DNA of 64,000 nucleotides, taken from contig BPHB01000002.1 of assembly GCA_026003335.1 (NCBI GenBank), positions 857,363-921,362 of the forward strand. Direction: 5' to 3'. A program made the position numbers and the translations under genes. Under the pieces are notes generated by a model, which saw nothing but the letters and a program-made list of their open reading frames with translations, ran no database searches and had not been told where the DNA came from. Numbering within the stretch: position 1 is the first letter of the stretch; every line of letters starts with the position of its first letter. Positions 923 through 20,211 of this stretch are shown here, one piece after another. This stretch comes from Chitinophagales bacterium. GTDB taxonomy: Bacteria > Bacteroidota > Bacteroidia > Chitinophagales > CAIOSU01.

Positions 923-1855
923 TTACGCCCGATGAAAAAACATTTTTTCAAAGGAGATGATGGTATTAAACCCTTTGTCCTTAAAATAGTGTATAACCTG
1001 ATTTACCGGCATGTCAGAACAGGCCATCACGAAGTCGCCACCCCATGCACCCAGTGACTTTACGGACCCCGGGAAATCCGGAAAAAGCAGCGTCTTAACC
1101 TTCTCCATGTGAAGCAGCTGAGCAAGGATATCTTCATGCTCTTCCATGAGCGATGCGAAGACGGCAGCTGAAGTGCAGCTAATCATGTTTTCGGTGATTG
1201 CAGAAATTTTAGTAACAAGGGAGGTATCTTTATACAGCCTGCGATAACTGCTCACGGCTTGCTGACTATTCTGTTTTTTCTCCAGATGGACGAAAAACAG
1301 CTGATGGGCGAAGGGTGGATTAAAATCAATCTCGTGCCAAAGTGGTTGCCCCTGACTTAACTGATAAACAACAGGGCGCGATGCACCGGCACAGGCTATG
1401 TCATATCCTGAACCGTCAGACACCGCAAAAAGCAGTTCAAACGGGTTGGTAGCTGACCAACACGCAATATTCCATATCAGAGAAGAGCTGCTGCCCAAGC
1501 CCCAGTTTAGGGGAAATTCCAGTTTTGCAGTTGCTTTAAGCGGATGAGGTGCTGCTAAAAATTGCGGATTCCTTTTGCGTGCTTCCCGTAAGAGTTCCTG
1601 CAGCAGGTAATGGGAGAGAGAGCCTTCTTTCTTCAGCACGCGAAAGTCAGTAGTCTCAAACGTGAGAGCCATCAACAGCTTATCGCGCTCATCACGGGTT
1701 TCCCAATACAAAAGATTCTCACGCCCCCCAGCAGGACGTATCTCCAGATGCTGTCCCATGCTGGTAGGAATGGCAAGTGCCCTGGCTCCTTCAAGGACTA
1801 AATATTCCCCGCTGAGCAGCAATTTGCCATGTGCATAAAAATGCCTTGGGGGCAT
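923..1855 (-). CDS. GHMP-family kinase (GYDIA subfamily), putative mevalonate-pathway kinase
   Basis: 310-aa ORF. It has the N-terminal HGKLLLSGEYLVLEGA, a GHMP motif-II-like PLNWGLGSSSSL and a GSGYDIACA string. It starts 4 nt downstream of the HMG-CoA reductase stop on the same strand. Confidence 0.75.
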   Translation of the reverse strand: MPPRHFYAHGKLLLSGEYLVLEGARALAIPTSMGQHLEIRPAGGRENLLYWETRDERDKLLMALTFETTDFRVLKKEGSLSHYLLQELLREARKRNPQFLAAPHPLKATAKLEFPLNWGLGSSSSLIWNIACWSATNPFELLFAVSDGSGYDIACAGASRPVVYQLSQGQPLWHEIDFNPPFAHQLFFVHLEKKQNSQQAVSSYRRLYKDTSLVTKISAITENMISCTSAAVFASLMEEHEDILAQLLHMEKVKTLLFPDFPGSVKSLGAWGGDFVMACSDMPVNQVIHYFKDKGFNTIISFEKMFFHRA

Positions 1856-1859
1856 CGGA

Positions 1860-3197
1860 TTATTTCTTTCCTACTCCGGTAAGCGGTGGGCGAATGGAAA
1901 TCAGAAAATTCCTCACTGCGGCATAAGATACCACGTGATGCTTGAAATATTCTTTAGCTTTTTCGGTTTCCTCTTCCGTTGCTTCAAACTGCTTGAGAAT
2001 ATTCAATAGGTGCATTTTCATGTGTCCTTTTTGAATTCCCACCGTTGTCATGGATTTCACTGCCGAAAAGTTATTGGCAAGGCCCACAGCAGAAGCAATC
2101 ATCATCAGTTCTCTGGCGGTGGGATTGCCCAGCATTTCAAGCGATAGTTTCACCAACGGATGCAGAGTGGTGAGACCCCCTACCACACCAAGCGCCATGG
2201 GCAGCTCTACTGCGAAGTGGAATTTTCCTCCATCCAGCTTGATATCCGAGAGGCTTTGATAGCGCCCCGAACGGGCAGCATACACGTGTGCACAGGCTTC
2301 TGTTGCGCGAAAGTCATTACCGGTAGCAATGACTACCGCGTCTGCGCCATTCATTATTCCCTTATTATGGGTGGCAGCACGAAAAACATCCACCTTGGCA
2401 ATCTTAATGGCCTTTGCAAATTTGGTTGCAAATTCTTCGGGTTGCATGCCCTCAATCACACCCAGCTCATGAATGGGGCATTCAACCCAGGTTCTGACAA
2501 TGCAATCGGGAGTGTAATTGGAAAGAATACTCATAATGACGCGGACATCCCGTTCCTCATCTGTAAAATCAGGATACACCAGTGCTTCCTGAGTCAGTGT
2601 GGCAGCAAAGTTTTCCAGCACGGAATTGATAAAGTTAGCCCCCATGGATTCGCATGTTTCAAAGGTAGCTTTTAGCTGATAGTAGTCCGGATCATACGAG
2701 GTCATATTTATCAGCTCAATATCCAGTATTCCGCCTCCGCGTTTTTCCATATTGCGGGTAATGGGATGCGCATTACGTATGAGGATTGGTTTGATATGAC
2801 GGATAAATTTTTTCAGTTTATGAAAATCTCCCCGCCAGGAAAAATGTACCTGCCCGATTTTTACGGTAGAAATGACTTCGGAGTGAAATCCGCCCCTCTC
2901 CAGCCAGAACTTGGCGCTACCTGCTGCAGCAGCTACTACCGAGCTTTCTTCAATTACCATAGGCACAGCATAGATCTTACCATTGATCATGAAGTTGGGA
3001 GCCACGTTGTATGGCATGTAAAAATTGGTAAGAGTATTTTCACTGAACTCATCAAAGAGCTTTTGCAGCTTTTCATCGTTATGCCAGTAGCTTTTGAATT
3101 CCTGTATAACCGCATCAGGGTTTTTAAAAAAATTGTGTGCCACCCATTCCAGCTTGGCCTGCTTGGAAAGTTTGGAGAAGCCTTCTACTCTTTTCAT
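1860..3197 (-). CDS. Hydroxymethylglutaryl-CoA reductase (class II-like)
   Basis: 445-aa ORF with VIEESSVVAAAAGSAKF, ESMGANFINS and ALGVVGGLT blocks typical of HMGR catalytic domains. The size fits bacterial class II enzymes. Confidence 0.88.
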   Translation of the reverse strand: MKRVEGFSKLSKQAKLEWVAHNFFKNPDAVIQEFKSYWHNDEKLQKLFDEFSENTLTNFYMPYNVAPNFMINGKIYAVPMVIEESSVVAAAAGSAKFWLERGGFHSEVISTVKIGQVHFSWRGDFHKLKKFIRHIKPILIRNAHPITRNMEKRGGGILDIELINMTSYDPDYYQLKATFETCESMGANFINSVLENFAATLTQEALVYPDFTDEERDVRVIMSILSNYTPDCIVRTWVECPIHELGVIEGMQPEEFATKFAKAIKIAKVDVFRAATHNKGIMNGADAVVIATGNDFRATEACAHVYAARSGRYQSLSDIKLDGGKFHFAVELPMALGVVGGLTTLHPLVKLSLEMLGNPTARELMMIASAVGLANNFSAVKSMTTVGIQKGHMKMHLLNILKQFEATEEETEKAKEYFKHHVVSYAAVRNFLISIRPPLTGVGKK

Positions 3198-3208
3198 ATT
3201 TTATGTTT

Positions 3209-4264
3209 TTATTGACGCACTTTTAAATAAGCATACGCCAGCTCCAGACCTTTGATTTGCCCGGCAATAAATTGTCGGAGCTGCTCATAGCTGTTGCGGG
3301 CATGCTCAAGGAGAGCCGAGCCCTGACCGTATACACTATTGGCCTGCAGCCTGTTTATCAGATAGTATCCATCCAAAAATGATTTGATGCCACCGGAGAT
3401 AATCACTTCGCGGCATAAAGCCTTTTTGCCCAGCTGTTGCAGGATTTGATTTGTAAAGTTTACCATTTCCGCGGCATCATGCCCCAGGTAGGCCACTTCA
3501 TCATACAGTGCACGCTGACTTGCCTTACTTCGCAGGAGTTCCACTTTGGAAAAGTTCGTGCCTCCGTGGGCTGCAAAATCCACGGCAGCCAAAGGCAAGC
3601 GGAACAATTCCCTGAGGCTCTGCGGGCCCATCCCCTGCCCTACCTCTTTTACGATGACTTTATAGCTGGCTTTTTCCAGCAGGGCTTTGATAGTATCCAG
3701 CGGTCTATGTTGTATTTTGTCGCCCTCTGGCTGCAGCCATTCCTGCAGGGGATTGATATGAATAATCAGACCATCGGCCTGCAGACGGACGACAAGGTTG
3801 TCTATGAGGTGTAACTTTTTGTCACGCACACAGGCCTCTACCTGTGCAATACCAAGGTTCGCATAAAAAGGACGGTCATCCCCCACAAGGGAGCGGAGGT
3901 TAAAATCATCAAAATAGCTATTGCCTTCCAGCAATATTCTGCAGGAGCCCAACCCCATGCCCAATCCAAACTCCCTGCAGGCCAGGGCAAGATTACGATT
4001 TATCTTATTTGCAAGCACGGTGCCCCCCGTCATACTGGAAATCCATAAAGGAGCCTTCATCGTTTTACCAAGAAAAGTAATGGGTTTGAGCGGCTCCGGA
4101 TGAGCTGACAAAACAGGCTCATAAAAAAACCTGGTATCCAACTGTCCATTCAACTGTGACTTAAAAGCCAGGGTGATATGATCTTTCTTGCGTGCAGAAG
4201 TTTTCTTCTCAGTTGTTTTTTCCTTTTGCACTCTGTTTTTTTGAACAGACATGATGGTTTCCAT
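3209..4264 (-). CDS. fni: Isopentenyl-diphosphate delta-isomerase, type 2 (FMN-dependent)
   Basis: Motifs WISSMTGG, LIIHINPLQE, VIVKEVGQGMG, AAHGGTNF and IISGGI. The track start at 4312 is a TTG that would overlap the HMGS gene. The ATG at 4264 (METIMSVQ...) leaves an 8-nt gap, so I prefer it. Confidence 0.9.
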   Translation of the reverse strand: METIMSVQKNRVQKEKTTEKKTSARKKDHITLAFKSQLNGQLDTRFFYEPVLSAHPEPLKPITFLGKTMKAPLWISSMTGGTVLANKINRNLALACREFGLGMGLGSCRILLEGNSYFDDFNLRSLVGDDRPFYANLGIAQVEACVRDKKLHLIDNLVVRLQADGLIIHINPLQEWLQPEGDKIQHRPLDTIKALLEKASYKVIVKEVGQGMGPQSLRELFRLPLAAVDFAAHGGTNFSKVELLRSKASQRALYDEVAYLGHDAAEMVNFTNQILQQLGKKALCREVIISGGIKSFLDGYYLINRLQANSVYGQGSALLEHARNSYEQLRQFIAGQIKGLELAYAYLKVRQ

Positions 4265-4272
4265 ATTCCGGT

Positions 4273-5763
4273 TTAATGATGTCTGGTTACACTTTGTCTG
4301 GTTATACCGCAATCTGAATTTGCCGCTTTACCGGATTCCGTCATCTGCGCACGGCCTTTAGTGGCTCCAGCTTTGGGGGCCGCAAAAGCATAGGTTCTTA
4401 CACCATAAAGTGGTTCTGCAGTGGCTACCGATTTGAGATAAAATTCATCTTCAGGAGGTAGTATGCTCTCCGTGATACTTCCGCTATGAAGGGCTTCATA
4501 CACATCAAAATCAATCGGTGTTCTTTGAAGCAAAGCATCAAACAAACCAAATTTATCCACGATGGGTTTCCACTCCTTTTGTACAACCCCTTCAAAAACC
4601 TTTGACTTTGATCCGCTGCCGTAAGTGCAAAAACCTACCCTCATGTTTTCCAGAGGCGTTCCATCTCTTAAATCTGATTCCAGTAAACTCATCAGTGATA
4701 AGAATACAGAACCGGTATAAAGGTTGCCTGTGAGGGATGAAGCCCTTTGTCCTTTTTCTATTTTTTCTCTAACAAATTGCTGATACAGAGGGGTTTTTGC
4801 AACTGTTTTTAAAGATTTGTTTTCCGGAAAAGAAGGGTCTTCTTCCAGTAATTGCTTACGCAACTCCGGATTGCGGATATATTCTTCCAGGAAGATTTCC
4901 GGAAACATTCTTTTTCCATGAAAGGCATAAGGCAGATGAAAAACGATACGCCCCCAGTCGCTGAGTTTATGCCGCGCTTTCAAACGGCTAAAATGCATAT
5001 AAGCCTGTTTTAACCTATTGGCGTAACATGTATTGGAATAAGGTCCATCAAAGACGGGAAATATTTTATGTATATCCAGGTAAGCTTCTTTGTCAGATAG
5101 AAACGGAAATGCGAACCCATCGGGAAGCTTGTCGCGGCTTATGCGTCTGAGGGGTTTAAAAAAATCGTGTTCACTGACTGCAGCAACGCCCACCGGTTCT
5201 TCTATTGCCAGCAGGCGGGGTTTCTGTCTGATCAGCAGGGCAACCGCTCCGGCACCCTGCGTATATTCCCCGGTGCTGCCCAGTTCATAGCGTGCATTAT
5301 CGGTACAAATCACAATGGCCGTGCGATTCTCACCCAGGCGTACCCAATCCAGTGTGTTATGCAGGGCATCCACCCCTCCGATGCAGGCAAAGGTCATGTC
5401 AACAACATCTGTATGCAGGAATGCGTGCGGGCCGTATTCGGGGTTGAAATAATCCGATAACATTGCCAGCACGTAGGATGCCAGCGGCTTTGCCCCGTCC
5501 ACAAGGCTTTCTGATCCAACATAAATTCTTCCGATTTCCTGAGGAGATAACTTATTTTTTTCTATAAGTTTTCTGGCCGCATTGGCCGCCATGGTTGCAG
5601 CATCTTCGTGTACGTCAGTAAGGCTCATGGCTTCAAGCCCCAGCCCGTCTTTGAGTTTTCCACAATCCAGATTACGGTGCCGGGCAAGTATCTCAATGGG
5701 CAGATATAACCTCGGAATATGAAAGGCCATATCATCAATACCGGTGAGAGGGGTTTGTTTCAT
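4273..5763 (-). CDS. Hydroxymethylglutaryl-CoA synthase
   Basis: 496-aa ORF with a thiolase-fold initiation-enzyme pattern: GIDDMAFHIPRLYL, an active-site-like DMTFACIGGVDAL, TQGAGAVALL and CTYGSGS. It sits immediately upstream of IDI2 and HMGR. Confidence 0.88.
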   Translation of the reverse strand: MKQTPLTGIDDMAFHIPRLYLPIEILARHRNLDCGKLKDGLGLEAMSLTDVHEDAATMAANAARKLIEKNKLSPQEIGRIYVGSESLVDGAKPLASYVLAMLSDYFNPEYGPHAFLHTDVVDMTFACIGGVDALHNTLDWVRLGENRTAIVICTDNARYELGSTGEYTQGAGAVALLIRQKPRLLAIEEPVGVAAVSEHDFFKPLRRISRDKLPDGFAFPFLSDKEAYLDIHKIFPVFDGPYSNTCYANRLKQAYMHFSRLKARHKLSDWGRIVFHLPYAFHGKRMFPEIFLEEYIRNPELRKQLLEEDPSFPENKSLKTVAKTPLYQQFVREKIEKGQRASSLTGNLYTGSVFLSLMSLLESDLRDGTPLENMRVGFCTYGSGSKSKVFEGVVQKEWKPIVDKFGLFDALLQRTPIDFDVYEALHSGSITESILPPEDEFYLKSVATAEPLYGVRTYAFAAPKAGATKGRAQMTESGKAANSDCGITRQSVTRHH

Positions 5764-5881: not shown

Positions 5882-7486
5882 CTACACTACAGCAGAATTC
5901 GTTTTTTTATTTTTTTTCATTTTGCGGTAAACCTCAGGAGAGGTTCGGCCTCTTACGGATACCTTTTCGTAAACCTCGTCAAAAGCCTGTTCGCATAAAG
6001 GAAGTTGTTCACGCATTTTATCATAGGCTGAGTGATCAAACATCTGCCTGAATTGGTCTCTTGTCAACATCGTACGGGCGTAAAGCGCCTGATAACCAGA
6101 ATGCTGCAGGACAAATTGCTCCAGACGGGGTAGCTCTACAGACGCATCAAACCCAGCTTTTCGCGGGGCGCCATATGCACCAATGTCTACGTATAGCTCA
6201 TCAATTTGCGCATCGGGTTTTTTAAACGGATGCAAAAAACCGATATGCTTTTCATTATCATAAATTGCCATCGGGCACAGCCACAGGGGATACAAATCAA
6301 AGTGCGATTGAAAATATTGCAAGGCGTCAGCCAGATAAAATATAGGGATGAGCATATCCTGCACGATATGATACCTATCGCGTAGTCGGGCTGTTGTTTC
6401 CGTCTGAGTATATTTCAACAGTGGTATCTTAGGAGGCACTGCCCATCCCAACAGAAAGCGAAAAACCGGATGATTGCCAAAAGGAATAATTTGTTCCATC
6501 TCCCAGAAAAAACTACGGGTGTGGCGATGATAGTAATGACGCAAAGGGATGTACTCCCCCATGCTGTCGGCATGATGCAGCATTTTTTCCACATGCTTAT
6601 AAAACCAGGGCTTATACCATCGTCCAATCGGATTGATGCGTTTTTTTTCGCCAGCAGGTACTTCATCGGTAAGCTGCCCACACAGAATAACGGCTTTATC
6701 CTGGCTGAAGACCAGCGCTTCTACAAAATCATTATCGGCCACATTTCTGCTTTCGGCCTCAAATATGCGCACTAACTCCTCTTGAGAATGAGCTTGCTTA
6801 TAGTGCATACGCACGTATTTTTTTGCTGGTATGATTTTTAATTCAGCTGCAACCAGAAAGCCCAGAGTGCCATGACTCCAGGGGATCAGATAAAACAATT
6901 CACTGTTTTGAGTTCTGCTGCACCGCAACAAAGTGCCGTCAGGCGTAAGCAGCTCAAAAGCTTCGCAGGAATATTGAAAGAGTCCGTATTTATGGCTGCT
7001 GGTTTCCACACCAAAACCCATAATCAGACCGCCCACGGTCAGATCATCAAGTTCGGGTACTACCGGTACCGTCCACCCTCTGGGAATGAGAGTCGCAGTA
7101 AGCTGACCCATCGTTACCATGGGTTCAACCCGCACAACACGCCTCTGCTCGTCTATTTCCAGTACATCTCTGAGATTTACCGGTATATTGCGATAAATTT
7201 TTTTGTATTTAGGTACCAGTTCGCTCATGGTGCTCCATCCCGAGCGTGCTGTGCAGAGCTTTTCTCTGGCGCCCTCATTACGCCATTGTTTGAGGTGCTG
7301 CTGAATTTTTCGTACACGTTCCTCGTGCAGGGCCGGAGCGCTACGCAGCAAAAGCGTTATCTTGTTTCGCAAAAAGAAGTACAAGTCATAGACGACAGAA
7401 AGCGGCAGCAGAAAGACGACCGCAAATACACCGCGATAATGCGTAAGCAGATATTCAAACAGACCCGAAGACTGATTGTTTTTCAT
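5882..7486 (-). CDS. Delta(24)-sterol reductase-like FAD-linked oxidoreductase (DHCR24/DWF1 family)
   Basis: Blocks [95 protein letters not shown] and YPLWLCP closely match animal DHCR24 and plant DWF1 as I recall them. There is an N-terminal hydrophobic helix. In-frame ATGs lie at 7555, 7519 and 7486; I chose 7486, which gives the smallest overlap with the upstream cyclase. Confidence 0.85.
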   Translation of the reverse strand: [534 protein letters not shown]

Positions 7487-9758
7487 TCGGATTAAGGTAA
7501 TGTTGACTTTCCAGCACATGTTTGCAACGAGATAAAGCCCACAAAGGGAAAACATTACGATAAGATGTATAAGTAATCATACAGTTATGGTTGAAAACCC
7601 CGCTTATGTTTTCCTGCGGCCAATCTCCATCGGTTTGTTGTCGCTGCAGCAGCAAAGTCATCCCTTTTTGAGCTCCGGCTCGGGCTTCCGGAAAATCACA
7701 GTTAAGCAGCGACATAACTGCCCAGGCGGTATGAATAATTTGGGAATGATCCGTCTCTGTATAGAGCTTTTTCACGCAAGACTGATAAGACTCGCCCCAT
7801 CCGCCATCGGACTTCTGCTTGGATAACAGAAACATCCCTGCCCGATAGAGTGCGTCAAGCATCTGTTTACGTAAGGCATTATCTACAGGCATGAACCCTT
7901 CCTGCATCGCGCGTAAATATGCGCGCAGTGCCTCGGTTGCAAACCATGTTCCATAGGTGAAGCAAACAGCCCACGAGCCATACCAGGAGCCATCGGGGCG
8001 TTGTTGTCGCAAAATAAAACCTATTCCGCGCCTTACGGCATCAGAGATCTGCGATGATTTATAATCAGGGTAGTGCCTGTTGAAAAGCAACAAAGCCTGT
8101 ACACATGCAGACGAGCACTCCGTGTAAGAATAGTCAATCATGATATTACCAAAAACCTCAGAAGGATTGAGCAACTCAAGCCATGCCGGACCCCGTGTGC
8201 ATTCGTAAGTTGCCCATCCCCCATCTTTGTTTTGCATGGATAATATCAGATTGACGGCCTGCTGCAATCTATTATCAGATATATTTTTTTTATCTACGAG
8301 ATCGTGCGTATGTATCAGCAAAACTGTTTTCAACCCCTCGGCCGTGCAATCGCTAATGGGCCATCCATGTTCAGAAGTGGAGAAGGGCCATCCGCCTACA
8401 GAATCGTGCCTGTAAAATTTTTTGTGCTCGCGGATTTCTTCCTTAATCTGTGCTACATCCAGATAATGGTATGCTTTTTCAATAAGGGGGTAAAAGTCGG
8501 AGGCTAGCCCTGATTCCATAATGGCCTGCGTGGCAAAGGCGGTATCCCATAGCTGCGAGCCGTTGTACCCCTGCATTTTCATACCATCTTCAGCCAGCCA
8601 AAGATAATCAAACCATCTTTCATAATGCTTTTTGAAAGCCTCCGAGTCTTTTCCGAACGCATGCCATACAACAATAGAGTTGATTACCTGATTGACGGGG
8701 CCTATGTTAATATACCCGGTATGATCATCTTCTGCACAGATGTAGCTGAGGATAAAATTTAATGCTCGTGACCTGAAAGCAGATATTTTTATTTTTTCAT
8801 ACACGTTGAGGAGCCGGTTTAAAAATTTCAGTACTCCTGACTGGGGGAAATATAAGTCGGTGGATGCACAGGCGTTCCTTGCCTGTATCCAGTCAATTTC
8901 CGCATAGGGCCGGGTGTAAATTTCCGTGCGCAATGCTTCGGTTAGCCTGGTGGTTCTTCCGGTGACACGATGACCGTAGCAATAAGACATAGGTAAATAC
9001 ACCATGCGTGCATGACACCAGAAGCGAGAGGGATGAAAGGGCAGACTTTCAGGCAGGAGCCACATTTCAGGGAACAATGAATTACATCCTTCCCATTCAT
9101 ACACTCCCAGCACGCTTAGATAAAATTTGCCCCAGGAAGGCACTCCAGTTGCTCCGCCATGAGCATGTATCCACGCACGTGCTTGAACCAACTCGGGTTC
9201 ATCGGGAGCATGCCCTAAAATCCTGAGAGCCACGTATTGCAGCACCGTTCCAAACATTGTGGAAGGACCTTCCAGATGCATACCCCAGCCTCCATCAGCA
9301 TTTTGATGGTTCAGAAAATAACGGGCAATAAGTGCACGGTGCGGGGCAGGCAAGGGCGATTCGGTTATATAAGAAGCAATAATCAGTCCCGGCAATAAAA
9401 ACATGGGCCCGCCATAATCTCCGGGCCAATAGCCTCCGGAGGTTTGCAAACGGGCATAAAATTCAATAGCTTTTCGTAGGGCTCCATTTAAACCAGTTTG
9501 CTGAGAAGGCTGATGTCTTTGGCCATTGGGGTGTTGGGCGGCTGCATGCCAGCGGTAAACTTTGTCTGAGCTGTTGACATTGCTGGTTTTGCTCCTGACA
9601 AAGGAAGCCGCCATTTCTTTCAGAAAAACACGCCCCCGCGGACCTTGCCAGTCTTCTTCAGTAAAATGATCAAAAGGCTCCGGAGGGCAAAATTGCCAGC
9701 GCTGTCTTCCATCCGGATCAAACAGTGGTTTCCAATATTTCCAATACGTTGTATTCAT
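7455..9758 (-). CDS. Oxidosqualene cyclase (cycloartenol-synthase-like)
   Basis: It has the DCTAEG catalytic motif (WPISDCTAEGLK) rather than the DxDDTA of squalene-hopene cyclases. It carries multiple QW repeats (QNADGGWG, QNKDGGWA, QRPDGSWYGSW, QKSDGGWGES, QQTDGDWPQ), plus MQGYNGSQLWDTAFA and an N-terminal GRQRWQF. An alternative ATG lies at 9791. Confidence 0.92.
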   Translation of the reverse strand: MNTTYWKYWKPLFDPDGRQRWQFCPPEPFDHFTEEDWQGPRGRVFLKEMAASFVRSKTSNVNSSDKVYRWHAAAQHPNGQRHQPSQQTGLNGALRKAIEFYARLQTSGGYWPGDYGGPMFLLPGLIIASYITESPLPAPHRALIARYFLNHQNADGGWGMHLEGPSTMFGTVLQYVALRILGHAPDEPELVQARAWIHAHGGATGVPSWGKFYLSVLGVYEWEGCNSLFPEMWLLPESLPFHPSRFWCHARMVYLPMSYCYGHRVTGRTTRLTEALRTEIYTRPYAEIDWIQARNACASTDLYFPQSGVLKFLNRLLNVYEKIKISAFRSRALNFILSYICAEDDHTGYINIGPVNQVINSIVVWHAFGKDSEAFKKHYERWFDYLWLAEDGMKMQGYNGSQLWDTAFATQAIMESGLASDFYPLIEKAYHYLDVAQIKEEIREHKKFYRHDSVGGWPFSTSEHGWPISDCTAEGLKTVLLIHTHDLVDKKNISDNRLQQAVNLILSMQNKDGGWATYECTRGPAWLELLNPSEVFGNIMIDYSYTECSSACVQALLLFNRHYPDYKSSQISDAVRRGIGFILRQQRPDGSWYGSWAVCFTYGTWFATEALRAYLRAMQEGFMPVDNALRKQMLDALYRAGMFLLSKQKSDGGWGESYQSCVKKLYTETDHSQIIHTAWAVMSLLNCDFPEARAGAQKGMTLLLQRQQTDGDWPQENISGVFNHNCMITYTSYRNVFPLWALSRCKHVLESQHYLNPNEKQSVFGSV

Positions 9759-9797
9759 TAAGTAAGTTGTACAATGCAACCAAATACGCATGCAATC

Positions 9798-9885: not shown

Positions 9886-11094
9886 ATGATACGGGAACTT
9901 ATACAATCCATGGAGCACCCATCGGAAATTATTGCCATGTTGCGGCTGAAGCTGGGTGGCTTTGACCTGGCTCACAACAAAGAGCCCCTTGACGTGGTTG
10001 CGGAGAAGTCCAGTGATAAATATTTCTGCTATGCTGCACTGAATGCGGTATCCCGATCTTTTGCCGTTGTGATTCAACAACTACCAGAAGAGCTCAAAGA
10101 TCCGGTATGTGTGTTTTATCTGGTTTTGCGAGGATTAGACTCCATTGAAGATGACATGACCTACCCCAGGGAGAAAAGGCTTCCTCTGCTCAGAAATTTT
10201 CACGCCAAGCTCTACCAGGAAGGATGGAACATTTCAGGAGTAGGAGACCAGAAAGACTATCGTCTGCTTCTGGAAAATTTTGACAAGGTTATCCGGGTAT
10301 TCAAAAAGTTAGATCCTGCATATAAAAATGTCATTGCAGATATCTGCGAGCGCATGGGTAACGGTATGGCTGACTATGCAGAGCGTTCAGTGACCACACT
10401 GGAAGACTATAACGAATATTGTTTTTATGTAGCCGGATTGGTGGGTATAGGTTTGTCCAATCTTTTTTCCGCATCCGGGCTGGAATCTCCAGAACTGCAA
10501 AAGCGAGAAGACCTTTCCCGGTCAATGGGCCTGCTGCTGCAGAAAACAAATATTTCGCGCGACTATTATGAAGACCTTAGCCTCGGACGTGCTTTCTGGC
10601 CTAAGGAGGTGTGGGGGAAATATTCAGATAATCTGGAATTGCTGCACAATGAGCCTGAGTCCAAAGCTGCGCTGGCTTGTCTGAATGAGTTAGTAACTGA
10701 TGCCCTGCAGCATGTTTCCAACTGTGTGATTTATCTGAATATGATTCGCCATCCGCAGGTATTTCGCTTTTGCGCCATTCCGCAGGTTATGGCACTGGCT
10801 ACTTTGGCAAAAATTTATAACAATCCGAATGTGTTTACGGAAGTCGTTAAAATCCGAAAGGGGATAGCCGCGAAAATGATGCTTTACATGAAAGACATGA
10901 ACTCAGTGAGGAAAGCGATGCTGGAATTTGTAGGTGATATTCATTTGAAACTGGACCCTGAAGATCCGAATTTCCTGAACACCAAAAAGGCGCTCAACAG
11001 AATTACAGAAGCGCTGGATGAAGTGAAATGGCGTGACCTAAGTATTCTTCCGCCCCGCTTAAAGGAATCAGGTGTAACCAAAAGCCTTACATGA
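9886..11094 (+). CDS. Squalene synthase (eukaryote-type farnesyl-diphosphate farnesyltransferase)
   Basis: 402 aa. It has the N-terminal HPSEIIAMLRLKLGG, YLVLRGLDSIEDD (first Asp-rich motif), YCFYVAGLVGIGLS, LQKTNISRDYYEDL and AIPQVMALATL. The C-terminus (KESGVTKSLT) has no hydrophobic tail. Confidence 0.9.
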   Translation: MIRELIQSMEHPSEIIAMLRLKLGGFDLAHNKEPLDVVAEKSSDKYFCYAALNAVSRSFAVVIQQLPEELKDPVCVFYLVLRGLDSIEDDMTYPREKRLPLLRNFHAKLYQEGWNISGVGDQKDYRLLLENFDKVIRVFKKLDPAYKNVIADICERMGNGMADYAERSVTTLEDYNEYCFYVAGLVGIGLSNLFSASGLESPELQKREDLSRSMGLLLQKTNISRDYYEDLSLGRAFWPKEVWGKYSDNLELLHNEPESKAALACLNELVTDALQHVSNCVIYLNMIRHPQVFRFCAIPQVMALATLAKIYNNPNVFTEVVKIRKGIAAKMMLYMKDMNSVRKAMLEFVGDIHLKLDPEDPNFLNTKKALNRITEALDEVKWRDLSILPPRLKESGVTKSLT

Positions 11095-12488
11095 ACGGCA
11101 TGCCCGCACAGATGCTCGCCCCGAAAACAGCGAGCGTATCCTCTGATAATGCCTATGTTTCCCAGGAATGGTATGATGTCTGCATCATCGGTGCCGGAGT
11201 GGCCGGTGGTGTGCTGGCAGCCTTTCTTGCCGATCATGGCAAGCGGGTAGCAGTCATTGAGCGCAATCTGGCGGAACCCGATCGCATCATCGGAGAGTTG
11301 CTGCAGCCCGGGGGGCTGCAGCAACTCTCCGCTATGGGCCTAAACCATCTGACCGAAGGTTTTGACGCACAGCCTATTGAAGGATATGCGCTGTTCATGG
11401 AGGGCAACAGCTTCAGTATCAAATATCCCGAAGGAAAAACCGGCAGAGGCTTCCGCAACGGCAAATTCATTAAAAAAATACGCGACTATCTTAGCTCCCA
11501 TCCTCACGTTACGCTTATAGAAGGGAGGGCGGATGACCTTGTTGAATCAAACGGAATCATTTGCGGAGTAAAATATCTTAGCAGCTCCGACCGACAGCAT
11601 CGCCAAGTTCATGCTTTCCTCACCGTAGCCAGTGATGGCATGTTTTCTTCTTTCAGAGAAAAACTTGCATACGGTGACAAGAAAGTTACCGGCTATTTTC
11701 TTGGTCTCATTCTCAAAGGATGTCTTCTTCCCCACCCCAATCATGGCCATGTAATCATCACCGACACCTCTCCCTGCCTGGTTTATCCTATTAGCTCGCA
11801 AGACATCCGGATATTGATTGATTTTCCCGGTGAACAACCTCCGCCAAAAGGAGTTGAGCTGATTTGTTTTCTGAAAGAAAAGATTGCTCCTCAACTTCCG
11901 CAATCTATACAACCTTCCTTTCTGGAAGCGATTGCAGAAAGTAAGTTCCGCTTTATGCCTAATCATCTCATTCCGGCCCGTCCGTGGTTCAAACAAGGGG
12001 CCGTGCTGTTGGGGGATTCGCTGAACATGCGCCATCCTCTTACCGGTGGAGGCATGACCGTTGCCCTTACGGATGTATATGTTTTAGGTTCACTTTTGCT
12101 TGAAAAGAAAAACACCTTTAACAGCCGTGCACTTGCCCTGGTAATACGAAGATTCTACCAACAACGCAGCAGCCACAATGCCACCATTAACATTCTGGCA
12201 GATGCTCTGTATAAAGTCATGAGGAGTCGCGAGCTCAAAATCGCCTGTTATAATTACCTGAAGCGCGGCAGCACCTACGCCTCCGAACCCGTGGCTATCC
12301 TCTCGGCCATCTCAAGAGACGTCCGTCTGCTGCTGAAGCATTTTTTTGCCGTAGCCTTTTTCGGAGCTTTTGACTTGCTTAAGCCTTATCCCACTTTATC
12401 AGGAGTCAAACGCGCTGTCCTTATGGTGCATGACGCAGTACGTATTATTTTTCCTCTTATACGAAACGAGCGCTTTAAGATCTTTTAA
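11091..12488 (+). CDS. Squalene monooxygenase (flavoprotein squalene epoxidase)
   Basis: It has VCIIGAGVAGG (GxGxxG), ERNLAEPDRIIGELLQPGG and GDSLNMRHPLTGGGMTVAL, as in eukaryotic SQLE/ERG1 as I recall them. Its start overlaps the squalene synthase stop (ATGA at 11091-11094). Confidence 0.9.
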   Translation: MNGMPAQMLAPKTASVSSDNAYVSQEWYDVCIIGAGVAGGVLAAFLADHGKRVAVIERNLAEPDRIIGELLQPGGLQQLSAMGLNHLTEGFDAQPIEGYALFMEGNSFSIKYPEGKTGRGFRNGKFIKKIRDYLSSHPHVTLIEGRADDLVESNGIICGVKYLSSSDRQHRQVHAFLTVASDGMFSSFREKLAYGDKKVTGYFLGLILKGCLLPHPNHGHVIITDTSPCLVYPISSQDIRILIDFPGEQPPPKGVELICFLKEKIAPQLPQSIQPSFLEAIAESKFRFMPNHLIPARPWFKQGAVLLGDSLNMRHPLTGGGMTVALTDVYVLGSLLLEKKNTFNSRALALVIRRFYQQRSSHNATINILADALYKVMRSRELKIACYNYLKRGSTYASEPVAILSAISRDVRLLLKHFFAVAFFGAFDLLKPYPTLSGVKRAVLMVHDAVRIIFPLIRNERFKIF

Positions 12489-13718
12489 CTAATACACCGC
12501 AATTTTTTGTTTAAACACTAAAGCGCCATCGTCCGTAATTACAGAAATTATGAACATGCCTCTTCCCATAAGCGGTATTTCGCTTATGGATGTATATCCT
12601 TCTGTATCCAACAGGATTCGCCCGGTGAGGTCCATTATGCGGATGTGATAAGTATATTCGGAATCGCCCTGTACACGTATATAAAGCACTTTGTTTTTAA
12701 CTTCTGTCATCACGCTTGTGCAATACCGCGGCCGCTGTTCAGGTAATGTAGTTGCCAATTTCCCGCTGAAAAGTAACTCTGCATAGACCGGAAGGTGATC
12801 GCTCATATAGTAAAGCGCTTGGCTGATATTTTCCGGCACGCAGACTCCCACTGGCGGATCAATAACCGCCTTATTAAAGTGCAGCCCGCAGTTGCCTATT
12901 GCCCTGCAGGATCCGGGAATCAGCTGCAGCCTATTTGCTCCGCTGGTTATATCTGCTGAATGAAAAATAAAATCAAACCGGTCATCCAGTCCACCAGTAG
13001 CACCACCGCCAAATGCCGCCAGTCGCGTGCTTTGCGTATGCAAGGCGGCAAAGTCAGGGTTGTTGCTCCATATGCCGGCCTGCAGCGGATCAAAGAGTGG
13101 CACCTCAGCCAATGAATCTACCAGAAGCTGGTAGCCTGCTTCCGAATAGGAATAGAAATTAAAGTCCCCACCAGCAAGAATGTTGACCGGTTCATCTAAG
13201 GCTTCATAAAACGCTTTAAGCCTAAGCAATTCATCATATCTCAGGTTTTCATTCTGGATGCCCTTACTGGAACGCAGATGCACTACAAACAGATTCAAAA
13301 AAACGGTATCCGTATAATTTAAGTAGTCGCCCTTTAAAAATATTTTGTAATAACTATGATCCCGTAAAGCAGTGGGAATATTTTCCTGGTGTACGATGCC
13401 TGTTTTTAATGCATTATAGAAAAGCATGTTGTCACTATCCGGTCCATTGATGAATGCAGCACGGGAATATGCGCCCGGAAAAACAGAATCTATTGCCTGA
13501 AGCAACATATCTGCTCCTGTATCATTAGTCAACTCACCAACCAAAAGCACATCAGGTTTTACAAAAGAGCAAATTTCTTTAAAATAAGTAGCCCGCTGCG
13601 GAGTACTGCCCGGATAATTCAACACATTATAATACATAACGCGCAGTGTATCCTGTGCATGCAGGATAATCTGCCCAAAGAGCAACAAAATTCCCAAAAG
13701 AGCCAAACGCAAATACAT
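12489..13718 (-). CDS. Secreted endonuclease/exonuclease/phosphatase (EEP) family protein with T9SS type A-like C-terminal sorting domain
   Basis: Signal peptide MYLRLALLGILLLFGQIILHAQ. EEP-like strings are RVMYYNVLNYPG, GGDFNFY and DRFDFIF..SDHLPVY. The C-terminal beta-rich ~80 aa ends in FKQKIAVY. Confidence 0.7.
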   Translation of the reverse strand: MYLRLALLGILLLFGQIILHAQDTLRVMYYNVLNYPGSTPQRATYFKEICSFVKPDVLLVGELTNDTGADMLLQAIDSVFPGAYSRAAFINGPDSDNMLFYNALKTGIVHQENIPTALRDHSYYKIFLKGDYLNYTDTVFLNLFVVHLRSSKGIQNENLRYDELLRLKAFYEALDEPVNILAGGDFNFYSYSEAGYQLLVDSLAEVPLFDPLQAGIWSNNPDFAALHTQSTRLAAFGGGATGGLDDRFDFIFHSADITSGANRLQLIPGSCRAIGNCGLHFNKAVIDPPVGVCVPENISQALYYMSDHLPVYAELLFSGKLATTLPEQRPRYCTSVMTEVKNKVLYIRVQGDSEYTYHIRIMDLTGRILLDTEGYTSISEIPLMGRGMFIISVITDDGALVFKQKIAVY

Positions 13719-13768: not shown

Positions 13769-16543
13769 TCAGCGGATAAGCGTGACATTTCCAGCTTCGC
13801 GCACTATCTGTCCGTTAAACAACTGTAAAATGAAAAGATAGGTATAAACGCCTACCGGCTGCGGCTCATCTTTGAAAATGCCATTCCAGGGCGTCACAGC
13901 ATCGTGTACTATTTGCCCCCAACGGTTAAAAATCTTAAACTCTTTCACGGTAACACCACTGGCTTTCAATATAAAAAACGCATCATTCATGCCATCCTGG
14001 TTGGGAGAAAAGGCACTGGGGATGGCATAGGCATCCGGTAATATTACCCGGATGAACACGCTTTCAGAGGCCGCACATCCTTCAGGTGAACGAACTACTA
14101 AAGTATATTCCTGATTAGAAGAAGGCGTTACAACAGGAGCAGGACAATCTGTACAGCTAATATCAAGATCAGGAATCCAATAAAAGCTATCTACAGATGG
14201 TCCGGATAAGTCTATATCTGTTCCCAACGTAACGCTGCTGCCTGATTCCACAGAAGTGTCAGCCGGAAATACGGTAAATGCAGGAGGAGCAATAATCGTA
14301 GCCTGAAAGGCATTTACCGAAGCTCCCGCGCAGCCTGCTGAATCGGTGACCGTCACCGAATAAACCCCATCATCATAAATTCTTATGGTGGGAGCAGTGC
14401 TGCCATTTGACCACTGATAGCTTCTGAAATCCCCTATTACGGAAAGAAGAATACTTTCACCGGCACATATACGATTGGTATCTGCCTGAAGAACGGGAGC
14501 CGGCAGGGGATTGACTACTACTGTAACGGAATCAAAACGGGAGCAACGGGTCCCCTGCACTTCAACAGTAAACGTGTACGATCCGATGGCACCTTGGGGG
14601 AAAAGCACCTGGGGATTCGGAGCAGTTGCACTGGATAGGTATCCCAGCGCTGCGGGAGGATTGGCTGTCCAGCGATAAGCCGTACCTGGAGGGCCTGTGG
14701 GACTGCCGCCTAATATTATCATCGGGCTGCCATCACACACCACCGTGTCCCGTCCAGCATCAGCCGGAGGGGCAGGAATCACATTAACCCAAACAGTATC
14801 TGCAGCGGAATTATCACAGGTGTCATAGGCAGTTCCTACATACATGGTTGTGGTTTCCGGATAAACAGTTGCCACAGAATCTGTCAGGCCGCTGGGTGTC
14901 CATAAATAGTGCGGATAAGGAGGCACTCCATAATCAGGAACAGAAACCAGATGCACGGGGGTACCTGCACACACCGTATCCCAAATGGTAAGCACTCTGC
15001 CATTCACTTCAGCATGTACTACATTTTCAATAGTCCGGCCTTCCACCGTAACGGCAAAGAAACTCCCGATGGCGCAATTATAAGCGCAACTCTCCGGGCA
15101 CTGAAAGGTGCGGTTTTTCAGAGTAAAGGGCAGCAGATAGTCCGGGCACTGAGGTTTCACGCAGGCCGCGAAATTGGCAAAACGCAAGGCCCCGGCACCG
15201 GGCACTTTACGGGGATCTGTTGTACAGGTTCCCAGATAGGGGCTTACATTGGTTGTGTCGCACCTAAGCTGACCCGTTGAGCCGCACGGACCCACTACTT
15301 CCATGGACACATCCGTGAAAATGCAAAAGGGTTGTGGATGACCGGGAGTAACGGTAGCGCAGGTAATCGTATCAGAATTTTTGTATTCCACGTCTATATA
15401 CACATCAAAAAGCTCAGTCTTGCCCGGCACGTTTACTATCAGCGTATAATCACAACTCTGAGGGCTGCGGGTAAAGGCCATATCCGCTCCTGCAAAGACG
15501 GTATCCGGCAAATAGTAGTGCAGAAATTTTCCTAAGCTGTCGCGTCCAGCAAGCACCACGGGATCAATTGTTACCGGATAACTGGTATGCGGGCTCGCAA
15601 GCCAGTCCACAGGTATCAGGGTCATCAACCGGTAATCATTTCCGTTTTGCTGAATGCGGTAGAATCCATACAGCCCTACTCCTTGTTTGTCATAACATAC
15701 CGGACGGCTGAAGCGAAAGGCAAAGCTGGTGTTTTCACTGTGTATTTCCAGGTCACCCATCCAGAGATCTTCTTCGTAGGAACGGCCATTGGTTTTATGC
15801 AGAGTCATTGCGGGCGGTAGAGTAATAATGTCTTCAAAAACCATCCATTGCAGGCCTGCCCATCCTTGCAGCGGCTCTTTGATAATGTAGTTGGTTTTTA
15901 CCTGGCCCGCTTCAAATATCTGCTGTATATCAATGTTTTCCCATGCCTCTTTGGTAAGAACCCCGCTTTCCCCCACGGAACTATGGGTAAAATCAACTCC
16001 GGATGGCAAATGGATATGGCCGTTTTTATCCAAAAAATATAAAGCAAGCCGGCTGTTGAATGCCAATCGCAACGGACCACTTTCAAGGGTCACTTCATTT
16101 CGGCTCTGATCATAATAAGCCGGAAAAGGTTGATTAAGAGCGGCAAAAAGATTAGGCTTCCCGGACACCGGCTTCAGCCTGGGATCAATGGTTCTGAGCC
16201 ATCCACTGGCATCACGGTAGTGTAAAGGAAAATAAGATTTCTGAATATAAAAGTGCTGGATGTTATTCGGATCAATAAAATAGCGTGTAAAGAAATCTCG
16301 TTTATGCAACAACTCCACGCAATCATGGCAACCTGCCTTGTACGGCAGCACTCCGAATTCGGGATGTTTCCGGAATTCCGGAGGAGTATGCTGAAGAACA
16401 GTAGCAGTAATGTGTATCTTGTCTTCAGTAAAGCCGGTGAAATTATGCTGGCGCACCTGCATTCCATTATCTGCGCCCTGCGCCAGTGAACAGAGCATAC
16501 AGAACACACTTAGTGCCAGCAAACGCAGGATTATGATTATCAT
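13769..16543 (-). CDS. Large secreted protein with gliding-motility-associated / T9SS type B C-terminal domain
   Basis: 924 aa with signal peptide MIIIILRLLALSVFCMLCSLAQG. The C-terminus reads AFSPNQDGMNDAFFIL...FKIFNRWGQIVHD...GNVTLIR. Confidence 0.8.
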   Translation of the reverse strand: MIIIILRLLALSVFCMLCSLAQGADNGMQVRQHNFTGFTEDKIHITATVLQHTPPEFRKHPEFGVLPYKAGCHDCVELLHKRDFFTRYFIDPNNIQHFYIQKSYFPLHYRDASGWLRTIDPRLKPVSGKPNLFAALNQPFPAYYDQSRNEVTLESGPLRLAFNSRLALYFLDKNGHIHLPSGVDFTHSSVGESGVLTKEAWENIDIQQIFEAGQVKTNYIIKEPLQGWAGLQWMVFEDIITLPPAMTLHKTNGRSYEEDLWMGDLEIHSENTSFAFRFSRPVCYDKQGVGLYGFYRIQQNGNDYRLMTLIPVDWLASPHTSYPVTIDPVVLAGRDSLGKFLHYYLPDTVFAGADMAFTRSPQSCDYTLIVNVPGKTELFDVYIDVEYKNSDTITCATVTPGHPQPFCIFTDVSMEVVGPCGSTGQLRCDTTNVSPYLGTCTTDPRKVPGAGALRFANFAACVKPQCPDYLLPFTLKNRTFQCPESCAYNCAIGSFFAVTVEGRTIENVVHAEVNGRVLTIWDTVCAGTPVHLVSVPDYGVPPYPHYLWTPSGLTDSVATVYPETTTMYVGTAYDTCDNSAADTVWVNVIPAPPADAGRDTVVCDGSPMIILGGSPTGPPGTAYRWTANPPAALGYLSSATAPNPQVLFPQGAIGSYTFTVEVQGTRCSRFDSVTVVVNPLPAPVLQADTNRICAGESILLSVIGDFRSYQWSNGSTAPTIRIYDDGVYSVTVTDSAGCAGASVNAFQATIIAPPAFTVFPADTSVESGSSVTLGTDIDLSGPSVDSFYWIPDLDISCTDCPAPVVTPSSNQEYTLVVRSPEGCAASESVFIRVILPDAYAIPSAFSPNQDGMNDAFFILKASGVTVKEFKIFNRWGQIVHDAVTPWNGIFKDEPQPVGVYTYLFILQLFNGQIVREAGNVTLIR

Positions 16544-16558
16544 GAAATCAGATTCAGG

Positions 16559-19500
16559 CTACCTTATCAAAGTTAAGTTTCCTTTCTTTTCCAATGTGGC
16601 AGAGCCCTTTCCGGCCTGGATAAAATAGACGTATGTGCCGGTATCCTGTGGTTTTCCGCGATGGGTGCCATCCCACCCCAGATTTGTTGCTCCCTGACTT
16701 ACTTCCTGTATGTTATTGGAATAATATACCTGCTCACCCCATCGGTTGAAAATACGTATTTCGTAAAATTCAATGTTGTCCCCGAACACAGTAAAGAAAT
16801 CATTCACGCCATCACCATTGGGTGTAAATGCCTGTGGAATACGAATAAATAGTTCACAACTTTCAACACTAACTTTCAGGGTATCGTAATGCATACAGCC
16901 TGTAAGTGTATCCCGCCCTTCAACAATAAATACGGTACTGGATGAGCCGCTGAACACCGGGTCGGGAGCCTCCGGATTATCCAGACCGGTGGCTGGGGTC
17001 CAGCGATACACATGTGCTCCGGAAGCCGTGAGCTGCATCCTTTCTCCTGAACATAATAATGAATCTTCAGGTAAAGCGGTAATGGCGGGCAAGGGATTTA
17101 CTCTTATATGCACACTGTCGGTCTGTCCGCATCCATTGTCATCAAACACACGAATAGCATACGTTGCATCCGCATCTGGTTTTACAGTAATTGCTGGCAC
17201 AGTATCGCCCGTACTCCAGAGATAATTCACCCCATACTCTGTGAAATAATGTACTACTCCGTTCCATATCCGGGGTGTTTGCGGGGAACTGAACGGATAC
17301 GTGATGCCTGTGCCTTCATAATAGTTCAAATACCCATCTGATGCATGGATGTTGAGTGTGGATGTGCCATTGGTGTATTTCATTTGCGTGCCATTGGTAG
17401 TAGTGATATAGAAGCCATATGTACTGCCGGCAGGCATAGTAATATTCAGGTTGATAGGAATGCCCGTAGGATTGTTGCCGGCAGCCGTAGCAATACCGGT
17501 TGCCGTGCCAAGTAGTGTCCATGAGGTGGGGTCGGTTTCAGCTCCGATAAAGGAAGCCGGACGGTAATAAATGGCTACATCTGCTATGGCGGATGCATCA
17601 AAAAAAGCACTAAATCCCTTAATCACTAAGGGCACATCGGCTTTGAGGTTGAACATATGTCCATCTTCGCGGTTGAATCCGAAATTATCTGTTATGAATT
17701 CTTTGTTGAATCCGGCACCTCTGGCCTTAAGTTCCACAGATGCACCGTCACAAACGGCTGTATCTGTACCGGCATCTACGGTAAGTACTTCCACTACCTC
17801 AATATTAAAGGTGCTGGAACGTTGCCCGCAGATATTGAGCGCTTCCAGACTGAGCTGTGCTGTTCCTACGGAGTCAAACGTCAGAATAACTTCATTGTTG
17901 GAGGTATCTACGATAGTCCCCCATGACAAACCCCACTGATAATACGTTTCCGGTAGAAATGAAACATCATACAGGAAGGTATCACCCTGACAAACAACTG
18001 ATGGTCCGTTTATCGCAACGTTGGGAATAGTAGTAATAAAAATAGTGGCCAAAGGAGAATAATTGCCGGTACATCCATAATTGGTTTCACGCACCCGGAA
18101 AGTGTAAGGGCCCGGAGGAGCTCCGCTGAAATCTATCAGCAGCGGATTGAAAGGCCACTTCAGAGGGATGCCATTATTCAGGGAAGCGCTCAGCCACTCG
18201 TATTCTGATTCCGGATTATATGGACTTATGTACAAGGCCGCTATCTCGGTGTTGCAATAAACAGTTCGCTCGGGTATTACAGCCAGGTTATCTGCCGGTG
18301 CACCAATAGTAAGACGAATAATTGTTCCGTTGGAATTCCATGGATGGGTAGAGCTGTCTGCGATAATGCGCATATAATACACTCCTGGGAGTATACCCAG
18401 GGCTAGCAAGTCATTCAGTGGCGGTACCGTCAGAATAAAAGACGTAGATGACGTATCATATACAATACCTAAACCTCCCTCGTTGACCACGGTGAAAAAC
18501 ATCATATCCAGCAGTTGCACAATAAAGCGATTGCCCTGCAGGTAGCTTGCAAGAGTATCCCATTCGTGAATATCAATGTCCACGGTATCGGAAGCTCCGG
18601 AAGTACCGGAGATGCAAAAATGCAGATCAACCGTATTGTTTGTGGTTATGTCACAGTGTTTGATACAGAAAGGGCCGTATAATGACCCCACTGCAACTGG
18701 GCTGGTAGATACCACACGTATGTAGTAGTTACAACCCTCAGGTACGCGCGGAATCAATCCCGAAACAGTGCCAGGCATAGCGCCAATAGCCGGATCAAAC
18801 GTTTCGGAACTGGGAAGCGTTCCAAGCACCGAGTAAGCAGGAATGATGTTGTAAATAGTATCATAAATAATCGTTGTGTCCAAAACAACAATCGTATCCG
18901 GAGGGTTAATAATAGTGTCCAGGGTCACCAAAGTATCGGCAGTAATGAGCGTGTCGCGATATTCAAAGTTGCCTGCCGAGTCTGACAATTGCGCCACATA
19001 CACATTATTGTTATTATACACTCTGGTTGAAGTAAAAGGCACATCTATGGCACTGAGCGCACAAACCGTATCCTGATCAATCGTTACAATGGGCGTCATG
19101 GTTGTGATTACATTCGCACAGGAGTTTACCTGAACACAAACACTTGCCTGCCCGGTAATAAAGGGCTGAGGCGATACCCGCACCAGCCGCACTTTGTAGC
19201 AGCTTCCGGGTGCAACATTCCCGCTGATAATGACAGCCACGGCACCACTGGTTTGCTGATTGAGGATGTTAAACACACCCAGATTCGTGCGATTGGCAAA
19301 GCTGCCATTGGCTCCGGATAATTCAATGCGATAAGTTCCGTCACATAAGGGTGCATCCATGCTCCATTGTATAATCAGCGCACTCTGACGGCATATCGGA
19401 TTGGGAGAAACAAAATCAATATGCAGATTAGTACCAAACTGAGCATCATAAGTGCCCACCACGATAATATCATCAATAGCGAAGGAAGCCGATGGAGGAC

Positions 19501-20089: not shown

Positions 20090-20211
20090 CCTTTTCACGA
20101 TTAAGGCTAAAGGTAATAAATGTGGAGGAATTATATGACTCAGAGAGGGCTGCTCGTATATGATCTGCAGCTTATGACAAAGCAATCGCCGGATCAGGGC
20201 CTCTGTTCGTT

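Follow-up and report, generated by a model that had tools for sequence, protein, structure and literature searches.

Background

The question raised by this locus is which sterol a bacterial cyclase makes when it carries the residues that mark plant cycloartenol synthases. The locus lies in a 64,000-nucleotide stretch of contig BPHB01000002.1 from a Chitinophagales bacterium (hereafter the window, meaning the whole stretch analysed), where GenBank lists the protein GIV34829.1 as a 'squalene-hopene cyclase'. Judged by its sequence, the open reading frame (ORF) encodes an intact oxidosqualene cyclase and not a squalene-hopene cyclase, and cycloartenol is its probable main product. An adjacent homologue of the delta-24 sterol reductase DHCR24 suggests that cycloartenol is only an intermediate on the way to cycloartanol as the end product.

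Production of cycloartenol by the bacterium Stigmatella was reported in 2003 (Bode et al., as cited in PMC4919349), and Fluviicola taffensis, a member of the Bacteroidetes, was shown to produce it in 2016 (PMC4919349). Two metagenomic bacterial cyclases, Ga0099828_100017293 and Ga0126314_100002927, gave cycloartenol on heterologous expression (PMC12324236). The bacterial cycloartenol-type cyclase is already known, also in Bacteroidetes, and the residue triad by itself adds little. Bacterial sterol producers are of wider relevance because steranes serve as biomarkers of eukaryotes and oxygen, and because it is still debated how the cycloartenol and lanosterol routes originated. The genome considered here is a metagenome-assembled genome (MAG) with KatS3mg locus tags and a contig of 1.12 Mb. 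Among other KatS3mg-series MAGs that have been described, one is from a Japanese hot spring and one was long-read sequenced; by analogy, a Japanese hot spring would be the source habitat of this Chitinophagales MAG.

Family assignment and start of the cyclase ORF

The cyclase ORF and the elements within it are as follows.

7455..9791, minus strand: oxidosqualene cyclase ORF, 778 aa (GIV34829.1, GenBank label 'squalene-hopene cyclase'; matches to 1W6K, TIGR01787, PF13243 and PF13249)
9756..9758, minus strand: alternative start codon M12 (the first residues of homologues correspond to MNTTYWKYWK)
8553..8579, minus strand: KMQGYNGSQ motif, residues 405-413, containing Y409 (codon 8565-8567); identical to Arabidopsis CAS1 406-414
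8346..8378, minus strand: TSEHGWPISDC motif, residues 472-482, with H475 (8367-8369), I479 (8355-8357), D481 (8349-8351) and C482

When PDB sequences were searched using phmmer, human lanosterol synthase (1W6K) matched residues 92-758 with E=2e-219, while squalene-hopene cyclases matched at ~1e-44. BLASTP identity to human lanosterol synthase was 49% over 663 residues, compared with 46% for an Oryza cycloartenol synthase domain and ~30% for bacterial squalene-hopene cyclase loci. Both squalene/oxidosqualene cyclase domains, PF13249 and PF13243, were identified using Pfam. Against NCBIfam models the protein scored 705.7 bits with TIGR01787, above the cut-off of 322.7, and 274.9 bits with the hopene cyclase model TIGR01507, whose cut-off of 431.1 was not reached. 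Its acid motif is SDCTAE, with D481, C482 and C559 corresponding to human D455, C456 and C533, and not DxDD; squalene-hopene cyclase loci carry Asp in the MAFFT alignment columns of H475 and I479. The catalytic and cavity-lining residues are all kept (Y98, W230, H232, F444, D455, C456, Y503, C533, W581, F696, N697 and Y704 in human numbering). The similarity to 1W6K, the TIGR01787 and TIGR01507 results and the SDCTAE motif together indicate that the GenBank product name is wrong.

The GenBank model begins at an ATG at 9791. Alignments to homologues set in at residues 11-17 of this model, and their N-terminal pattern 'M..YW.YWK' is reproduced from M12 (9758-9756). The annotated M1 is therefore probably 11 codons too far upstream, and the real protein may have 767 aa, in which case the residues discussed below (Y409, H475, I479 and D481) would be numbered 398, 464, 468 and 470. 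The numbering of the 778-aa model is used throughout.

Residues at the product-specificity positions

A sequence-only reading of this DNA had proposed that the cyclase carries the Tyr/His/Ile triad of cycloartenol synthases and should make cycloartenol, the plant-type protosterol, rather than lanosterol. Its account of the residues was confirmed. Read on the minus strand, TAC encodes Tyr409 at 8567-8565, CAT encodes His475 at 8369-8367, ATT encodes Ile479 at 8357-8355 and GAT encodes the catalytic Asp481 at 8351-8349, and the two peptides that it quoted, MKMQGYNGSQLWD and STSEHGWPISDCTAEG, are both found in the ORF. The human strings that it gave, QGTNGSQ and LDCGWIVSDC, agree with the 1W6K sequence, and its triad of Tyr410, His477 and Ile481 agrees with Arabidopsis CAS1 (AtCAS) as given in PMC7060231.

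The homology of the three residues to CAS1 positions 410, 477 and 481, on which the proposal had been made to depend, was borne out by alignment. In the HMMER alignment to 1W6K both motifs are gap-free, with Y409 opposite T381, H475 opposite C449, I479 opposite V453 and D481 opposite D455. The same columns were obtained using MAFFT with 199 sequences (the window protein, human lanosterol synthase, the Oryza cycloartenol synthase domain, 117 database homologues and 79 GTDB loci), where the Oryza domain reads Y/H/I/D. The corresponding CAS1 motifs are KMQGYNGSQ at 406-414 and TADHGWPISDC at 474-484 (PMC7060231); the window's HGWPISDC matches the CAS1 residues 477-484 given there exactly, and the human equivalent is TLDCGWIVSDC. 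The His (AtCAS 477), Ile (481) and Tyr (410) expected of a cycloartenol synthase are thus all present as H475, I479 and Y409, and the lanosterol synthase signature of Val at human position 453 with Cys, Gln or Asn at 449 was not found at I479 and H475. The equivalents of AtCAS positions 469, 477, 481, 531 and 532 are G467, H475, I479, T528 and Y529, and those of Y118, H257 and Y734 are Y126, H260 and Y741. Among these positions, only 469, which was neutral in AtCAS mutagenesis, departs from plant cycloartenol synthases.

The weight of these residues is known from mutagenesis of AtCAS, described in a 2026 preprint. H477N converted the enzyme to lanosterol production completely and I481V partly, single substitutions yielded mixed products, and A469G and T531S were without effect. 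In the mechanism proposed there, a His477-Tyr532 dyad takes the C-19 proton and Ile481 positions His477, while Tyr410 is given a role in plant lanosterol synthases. In bacteria, only position 453 was reliably conserved, and I453 versus V453 matched cycloartenol versus lanosterol completely in the strains subjected to lipid analysis (Wei et al. 2016; PMC4919349).

The human and Arabidopsis enzymes, from which the roles of the window's residues are drawn, suggest a hypothetical reaction course. The neighboring squalene synthase and squalene epoxidase genes would provide (3S)-2,3-oxidosqualene as substrate, and D481 of the SDCTAE motif, backed by C482 and C559, would protonate its epoxide. Cyclization would lead to the protosteryl cation, and rearrangement to a cation at C-9. 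H475 would then act with Y529, the bulkier I479 holding H475 in place, such that proton loss from the C-19 methyl is favored. This loss would close the 9beta,19-cyclopropane ring of cycloartenol instead of forming the delta-8 bond of lanosterol. Finally, the DHCR24-type reductase would saturate the delta-24(25) bond, leaving cycloartanol, alone or mixed with cycloartenol, as the likely end product in the membrane.

Variation of the triad among bacterial homologues

In order to determine how far the triad discriminates among bacteria, MAFFT columns were counted across 287 bacterial homologues. Position 381 (human numbering) is Tyr in all 287, position 449 is His in 267 and Gln in 20, and position 453 is Ile in 209, Val in 77 and Thr in one. 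The combinations that occur, mostly in Bacteroidota MAGs, are YHI, YHV, YQV, YQI and YQT. Since the triad varies among these homologues, the state found in the window is informative. Tyr is invariant, the Q/V forms included (e.g., a Y/Q/V sequence from a Methylococcaceae MAG, L041), and so carries no information here; only His and Ile discriminate. YHI is found in 115 of the 117 nearest database homologues and is the default state of the window's own clade of Chitinophagales-type homologues.

Within Fluviicola and the Crocinitomicaceae, most cyclases read 'DHAWAVTDC', i.e., Y/H/V with Gly450 replaced by Ala (L029-L036, L039, L047 and L050-L053; P0242-P0279; the cluster of P0241). A minority of Fluviicola-type cyclases read 'DHGWAITDC' (Y/H/I), and both forms occur inside a single cluster at 90% identity. 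A MAG labelled F. taffensis (L031) has a Y/H/V cyclase, and F. chungangensis (L054) has Y/H/I. The paired Gly-to-Ala and Ile-to-Val changes look like a coupled and recent switch, which may alter the ratio of cycloartenol, lanosterol and parkeol within one genus. A cyclase and mevalonate/sterol cluster that nearly match those of Fluviicola (Bacteroidota) in sequence motifs and in gene order are found in a genome named as a gammaproteobacterium (L037; CP034120.1, 'Glaciecola amylolytica strain THG-3.7'), which could be either mislabelled or the recipient of a whole-cluster transfer.

A neighbor-joining tree (100 bootstraps) was constructed with one plant and one human reference. The window protein and the 286 other bacterial cyclases form a group of 287 that excludes both references with 84% bootstrap, and the window protein pairs at 100% with that of an uncultured Chitinophagaceae MAG (L001/P0002), to which it is 66% identical. 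With a single plant and a single human sequence, the tree gives nothing firm on deeper origins. The enzyme is placed by this tree in a bacterial clade and not in the plant clade; the 'plant-type' label thus fits the predicted product and not the enzyme.

A DHCR24-type reductase overlaps the cyclase gene

The gene that follows the cyclase is annotated as hypothetical in GenBank.

5882..7486, minus strand: DHCR24-type FAD-dependent delta-24 sterol reductase homologue, 534 aa (GIV34828.1, 'hypothetical'; PF01565, FAD_binding_4)

Its FAD_binding_4 domain and its close Methylococcales homologues identify this protein, at the level of sequence, as a member of the DHCR24-type reductase family. It is 71% identical to the L001 protein, and its next relatives are 60-64% identical. 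Those of the latter that bear an organism name are all from Methylococcales or Gammaproteobacteria (Methylocaldum, Methylobacter, Methylosarcina and Methylomicrobium), and several of the Methylococcales relatives are named delta-24 sterol reductase. The AlphaFold model (pLDDT 75.6, pTM 0.79) has a VAO/DprE1-type fold, and a structure search of this model against the PDB returned the generic VAO/DprE1 fold at 13-17% identity, which confirms the superfamily and not the function.

The start of the reductase gene overlaps the 3' end of the cyclase gene by 32 nt, so the two may be translationally coupled. Among 55 related loci, a reductase stands beside the cyclase only in L001, where the order of cyclase, reductase and HMG-CoA synthase is the same. 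This restricted adjacency, together with the Methylococcales origin of the other close relatives, suggests that the reductase family was acquired horizontally by a small Chitinophagales lineage. A compositional sign of recent transfer was not seen, GC content being uniform (0.42-0.53) from 1 to 20 kb.

In plants, the conversion of cycloartenol to cycloartanol is carried out by SSR2, a DHCR24/DWF1 family member, and the same reaction is predicted for the window reductase. The DHCR24 homologue of Methylococcus capsulatus branches with metazoan DHCR24, which fits its delta-24-saturated sterols (Desmond and Gribaldo), and Methylosarcina lacus, which has no DHCR24 homologue, does not saturate C-24 (Wei et al., PMC4919349). 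We tentatively propose, at somewhat less than even odds, that a small thermophilic Chitinophagales lineage, represented by this MAG and L001, pairs a Bacteroidota cycloartenol-type cyclase with a Methylococcales-related delta-24 reductase in a two-enzyme cycloartanol module. We found no report in the literature of cycloartanol, a side-chain-saturated cyclopropyl sterol, from bacteria.

A reductase homologue (P0124) was also observed on a methanotroph-like metagenomic contig (L082, 5594-9611), where it lies in divergent orientation beside genes for a Rieske oxygenase and a 3beta-hydroxysteroid dehydrogenase (3beta-HSD)-type dehydrogenase. We read this pair as sdmA/sdmB-like, its layout being that of the C-4 demethylation genes of methanotrophs, and the arrangement suggests that L082 holds a sterol-tailoring mini-cluster.

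The surrounding gene cluster

The cyclase sits in one compact isoprenoid-to-sterol cluster that holds mevalonate-pathway genes, squalene synthase and squalene epoxidase. Besides the cyclase and reductase, its genes are as follows.

9886..11094, plus strand: squalene synthase, divergent from the cyclase (TIGR01559, 465.7 bits, cut-off 286.75)
11091..12488, plus strand: squalene epoxidase, supplying 2,3-oxidosqualene (PF08491, E=3.4e-83)
4273..5763, minus strand: HMG-CoA synthase
3209..4312, minus strand: type 2 isopentenyl-diphosphate isomerase homologue (TIGR02151, E=2e-55; 188.1 bits, below the curated cut-off of 281.3)
1860..3197, minus strand: HMG-CoA reductase, class II type (PF00368, E=6.5e-84)
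923..1855, minus strand: GYDIA-family GHMP kinase, a candidate mevalonate-pathway kinase (NF040656, 342.7 bits, cut-off 225; no Pfam match)

Much of this arrangement recurs elsewhere. The cyclase has squalene synthase and squalene epoxidase as neighbors in 34 of the 55 related loci, and in 25 it is preceded by a polyprenyl synthetase gene. A GYDIA-family GHMP kinase invariably follows HMG-CoA reductase in the Bacteroidota mevalonate/sterol clusters, as seen in 17 related loci, and Fluviicola-type loci additionally hold mevalonate diphosphate decarboxylase and another GHMP kinase. Further sterol-tailoring genes (CYP51, Rieske SdmA, 3beta-HSD SdmB, ERG24/ERG4, SMT and CPI) were not found within the 64-kb window, the remainder of which is ordinary Bacteroidota housekeeping.

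At the edge of the cluster, a gene of the endonuclease/exonuclease/phosphatase family (409 aa; 12489-13718, minus strand) is convergent with squalene epoxidase and is not kept in related loci. Two very large proteins (924 and 1208 aa; 13769-20185, minus strand), whose C termini carry CHU_C type IX secretion signal domains, adjoin the sterol cluster, and their presence confirms the Bacteroidota origin of the contig. Farther away, at 41421-42200 on the plus strand, lies a PcrB gene of the geranylgeranylglyceryl/heptaprenylglyceryl phosphate synthase family (NF003198, 274.8 bits), a homologue of archaeal-type ether-lipid prenyltransferases.

Alternative explanations

Several observations weigh against cycloartenol as the product or against its further reduction. 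The specificity rules derive from plant mutagenesis and from a few bacteria, and cyclases from Fluviicola, the genus of the nearest lipid-tested organism, are only ~50% identical to the window protein. The equivalent of AtCAS A469 is Gly, the state of plant lanosterol synthases. TIGR03463 (2,3-oxidosqualene cyclase) scored 744.7 bits, below its curated cut-off of 851; no other family scores higher, and the gap is attributed to a cut-off that is strict for a divergent clade and not to a different family. Cystobacter fuscus has a C-24 reductase homologue and yet makes only cycloartenol (PMC4919349), so such a homologue is no guarantee of activity. Some of these points would favor a lanosterol or parkeol synthase, or an enzyme of mixed product, whose specificity is set by residues outside the triad in a divergent bacterial scaffold. 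Such an enzyme would agree with an identity of just 46% to plant cycloartenol synthase, with the Gly at position 469 and with the mixed products of single AtCAS substitutions. Moreover, bacterial cyclases can combine Tyr381 with Q449/V453, which means that the triad rule of eukaryotes is not transferable intact. However, the two positions that were experimentally effective in AtCAS, H477 and I481, are both in the cycloartenol state, I453 is fully correlated with cycloartenol in lipid-analysed bacteria, and A469G was neutral in AtCAS. We consider this alternative unlikely, and cycloartenol is retained as the predicted main product.

That the enzyme is a squalene-hopene cyclase, or makes some other non-sterol triterpene as arborinol and eudoraenol synthases do, is highly improbable. 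The former is what the GenBank product name says, the Pfam domains are common to squalene-hopene cyclases, and a cyclase of Eudoraea (Bacteroidetes) makes arborane triterpenols (PMC12324236). The sequence contradicts this reading, in that identity to squalene-hopene cyclases is low, the acid motif is SDCTAE rather than D-x-D-D, the hopene cyclase profile is not reached and a squalene epoxidase gene adjoins the cyclase in the cluster. The substitutions W230S, H232Y and N697Y (human numbering) that mark bacterial arborinol/eudoraenol synthases (PMC12324236) are not present either, the window residues being W258, H260 and N734. An inactive gene, or eukaryotic DNA contaminating the assembly, is hardly credible. 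The cyclase, squalene synthase, squalene epoxidase and DHCR24 genes are all eukaryote-like and the source is a MAG, but the ORF is unbroken with every catalytic residue intact, and typical Bacteroidota genes occur elsewhere in the window (CHU_C type IX secretion domains, Rho, RecR and an ECF sigma factor). The contig is moreover long, at 1.12 Mb, its GC content is uniform across the region, and orthologues with the same squalene synthase/squalene epoxidase arrangement occur in dozens of Chitinophagales MAGs; together these features contradict inactivity and contamination alike.

Contribution of this locus

What is added here is a corrected annotation of GIV34829.1 as an oxidosqualene cyclase, the finding that Tyr is uninformative in bacteria, and the pairing of cyclase and reductase as a lead. 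A hot-spring Chitinophagales lineage joins those bacteria for which cyclopropyl sterols are predicted. Should the reductase act on cycloartenol, the two genes would constitute a minimal pathway of bacterial sterol tailoring that was put together through gene transfer. A cycloartanol module, if true, could bear on how saturated 4,4-dimethyl steroid signals in hot-spring mats are read.

Comparison with known systems

The window enzyme resembles Arabidopsis CAS1 and plant cycloartenol synthases (EC 5.4.99.8) in its identical KMQGYNGSQ and HGWPISDC(TAEG) stretches and in matching Y118, H257, Y410, H477, I481, D483, T531, Y532 and Y734, and the same product is predicted for it. It differs from them in its 46% identity to the Oryza domain, in Gly at the A469 position, in grouping with a bacterial clade and in being encoded by an intron-free gene within a bacterial operon-like cluster. 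With human lanosterol synthase (1W6K) it shares the fold family, the catalytic Asp and the aromatic lining, whereas the human enzyme has T381/C449/V453 in place of Y/H/I and makes lanosterol.

Among bacteria, the cycloartenol producers Fluviicola taffensis, Stigmatella aurantiaca, Cystobacter fuscus and Methyloceanibacter caenitepidi (PMC4919349) likewise have a cyclase with I453, and in bacterial cycloartenol producers the cyclase also clusters with genes for squalene epoxidase, squalene synthase and the mevalonate pathway. Fluviicola-type loci, from the same phylum as the window, have squalene synthase, squalene epoxidase, isopentenyl-diphosphate isomerase, HMG-CoA reductase and the GYDIA kinase in common with it, although cyclase identity is ~50% and gene order differs. 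F. taffensis was reported to be without sterol genes downstream of the cyclase (PMC4919349), in contrast to the overlapping DHCR24 homologue of the window. That reductase is 60-64% identical to the Methylococcales DHCR24 homologues, whose presence or absence tracks C-24 saturation in methanotroph sterols. In methanotrophs, however, the reductase is paired with a lanosterol-type pathway and with C-4/C-14 demethylation, for which no demethylase genes were found in the 64-kb window, and the predicted substrate of the window reductase is instead cycloartenol.

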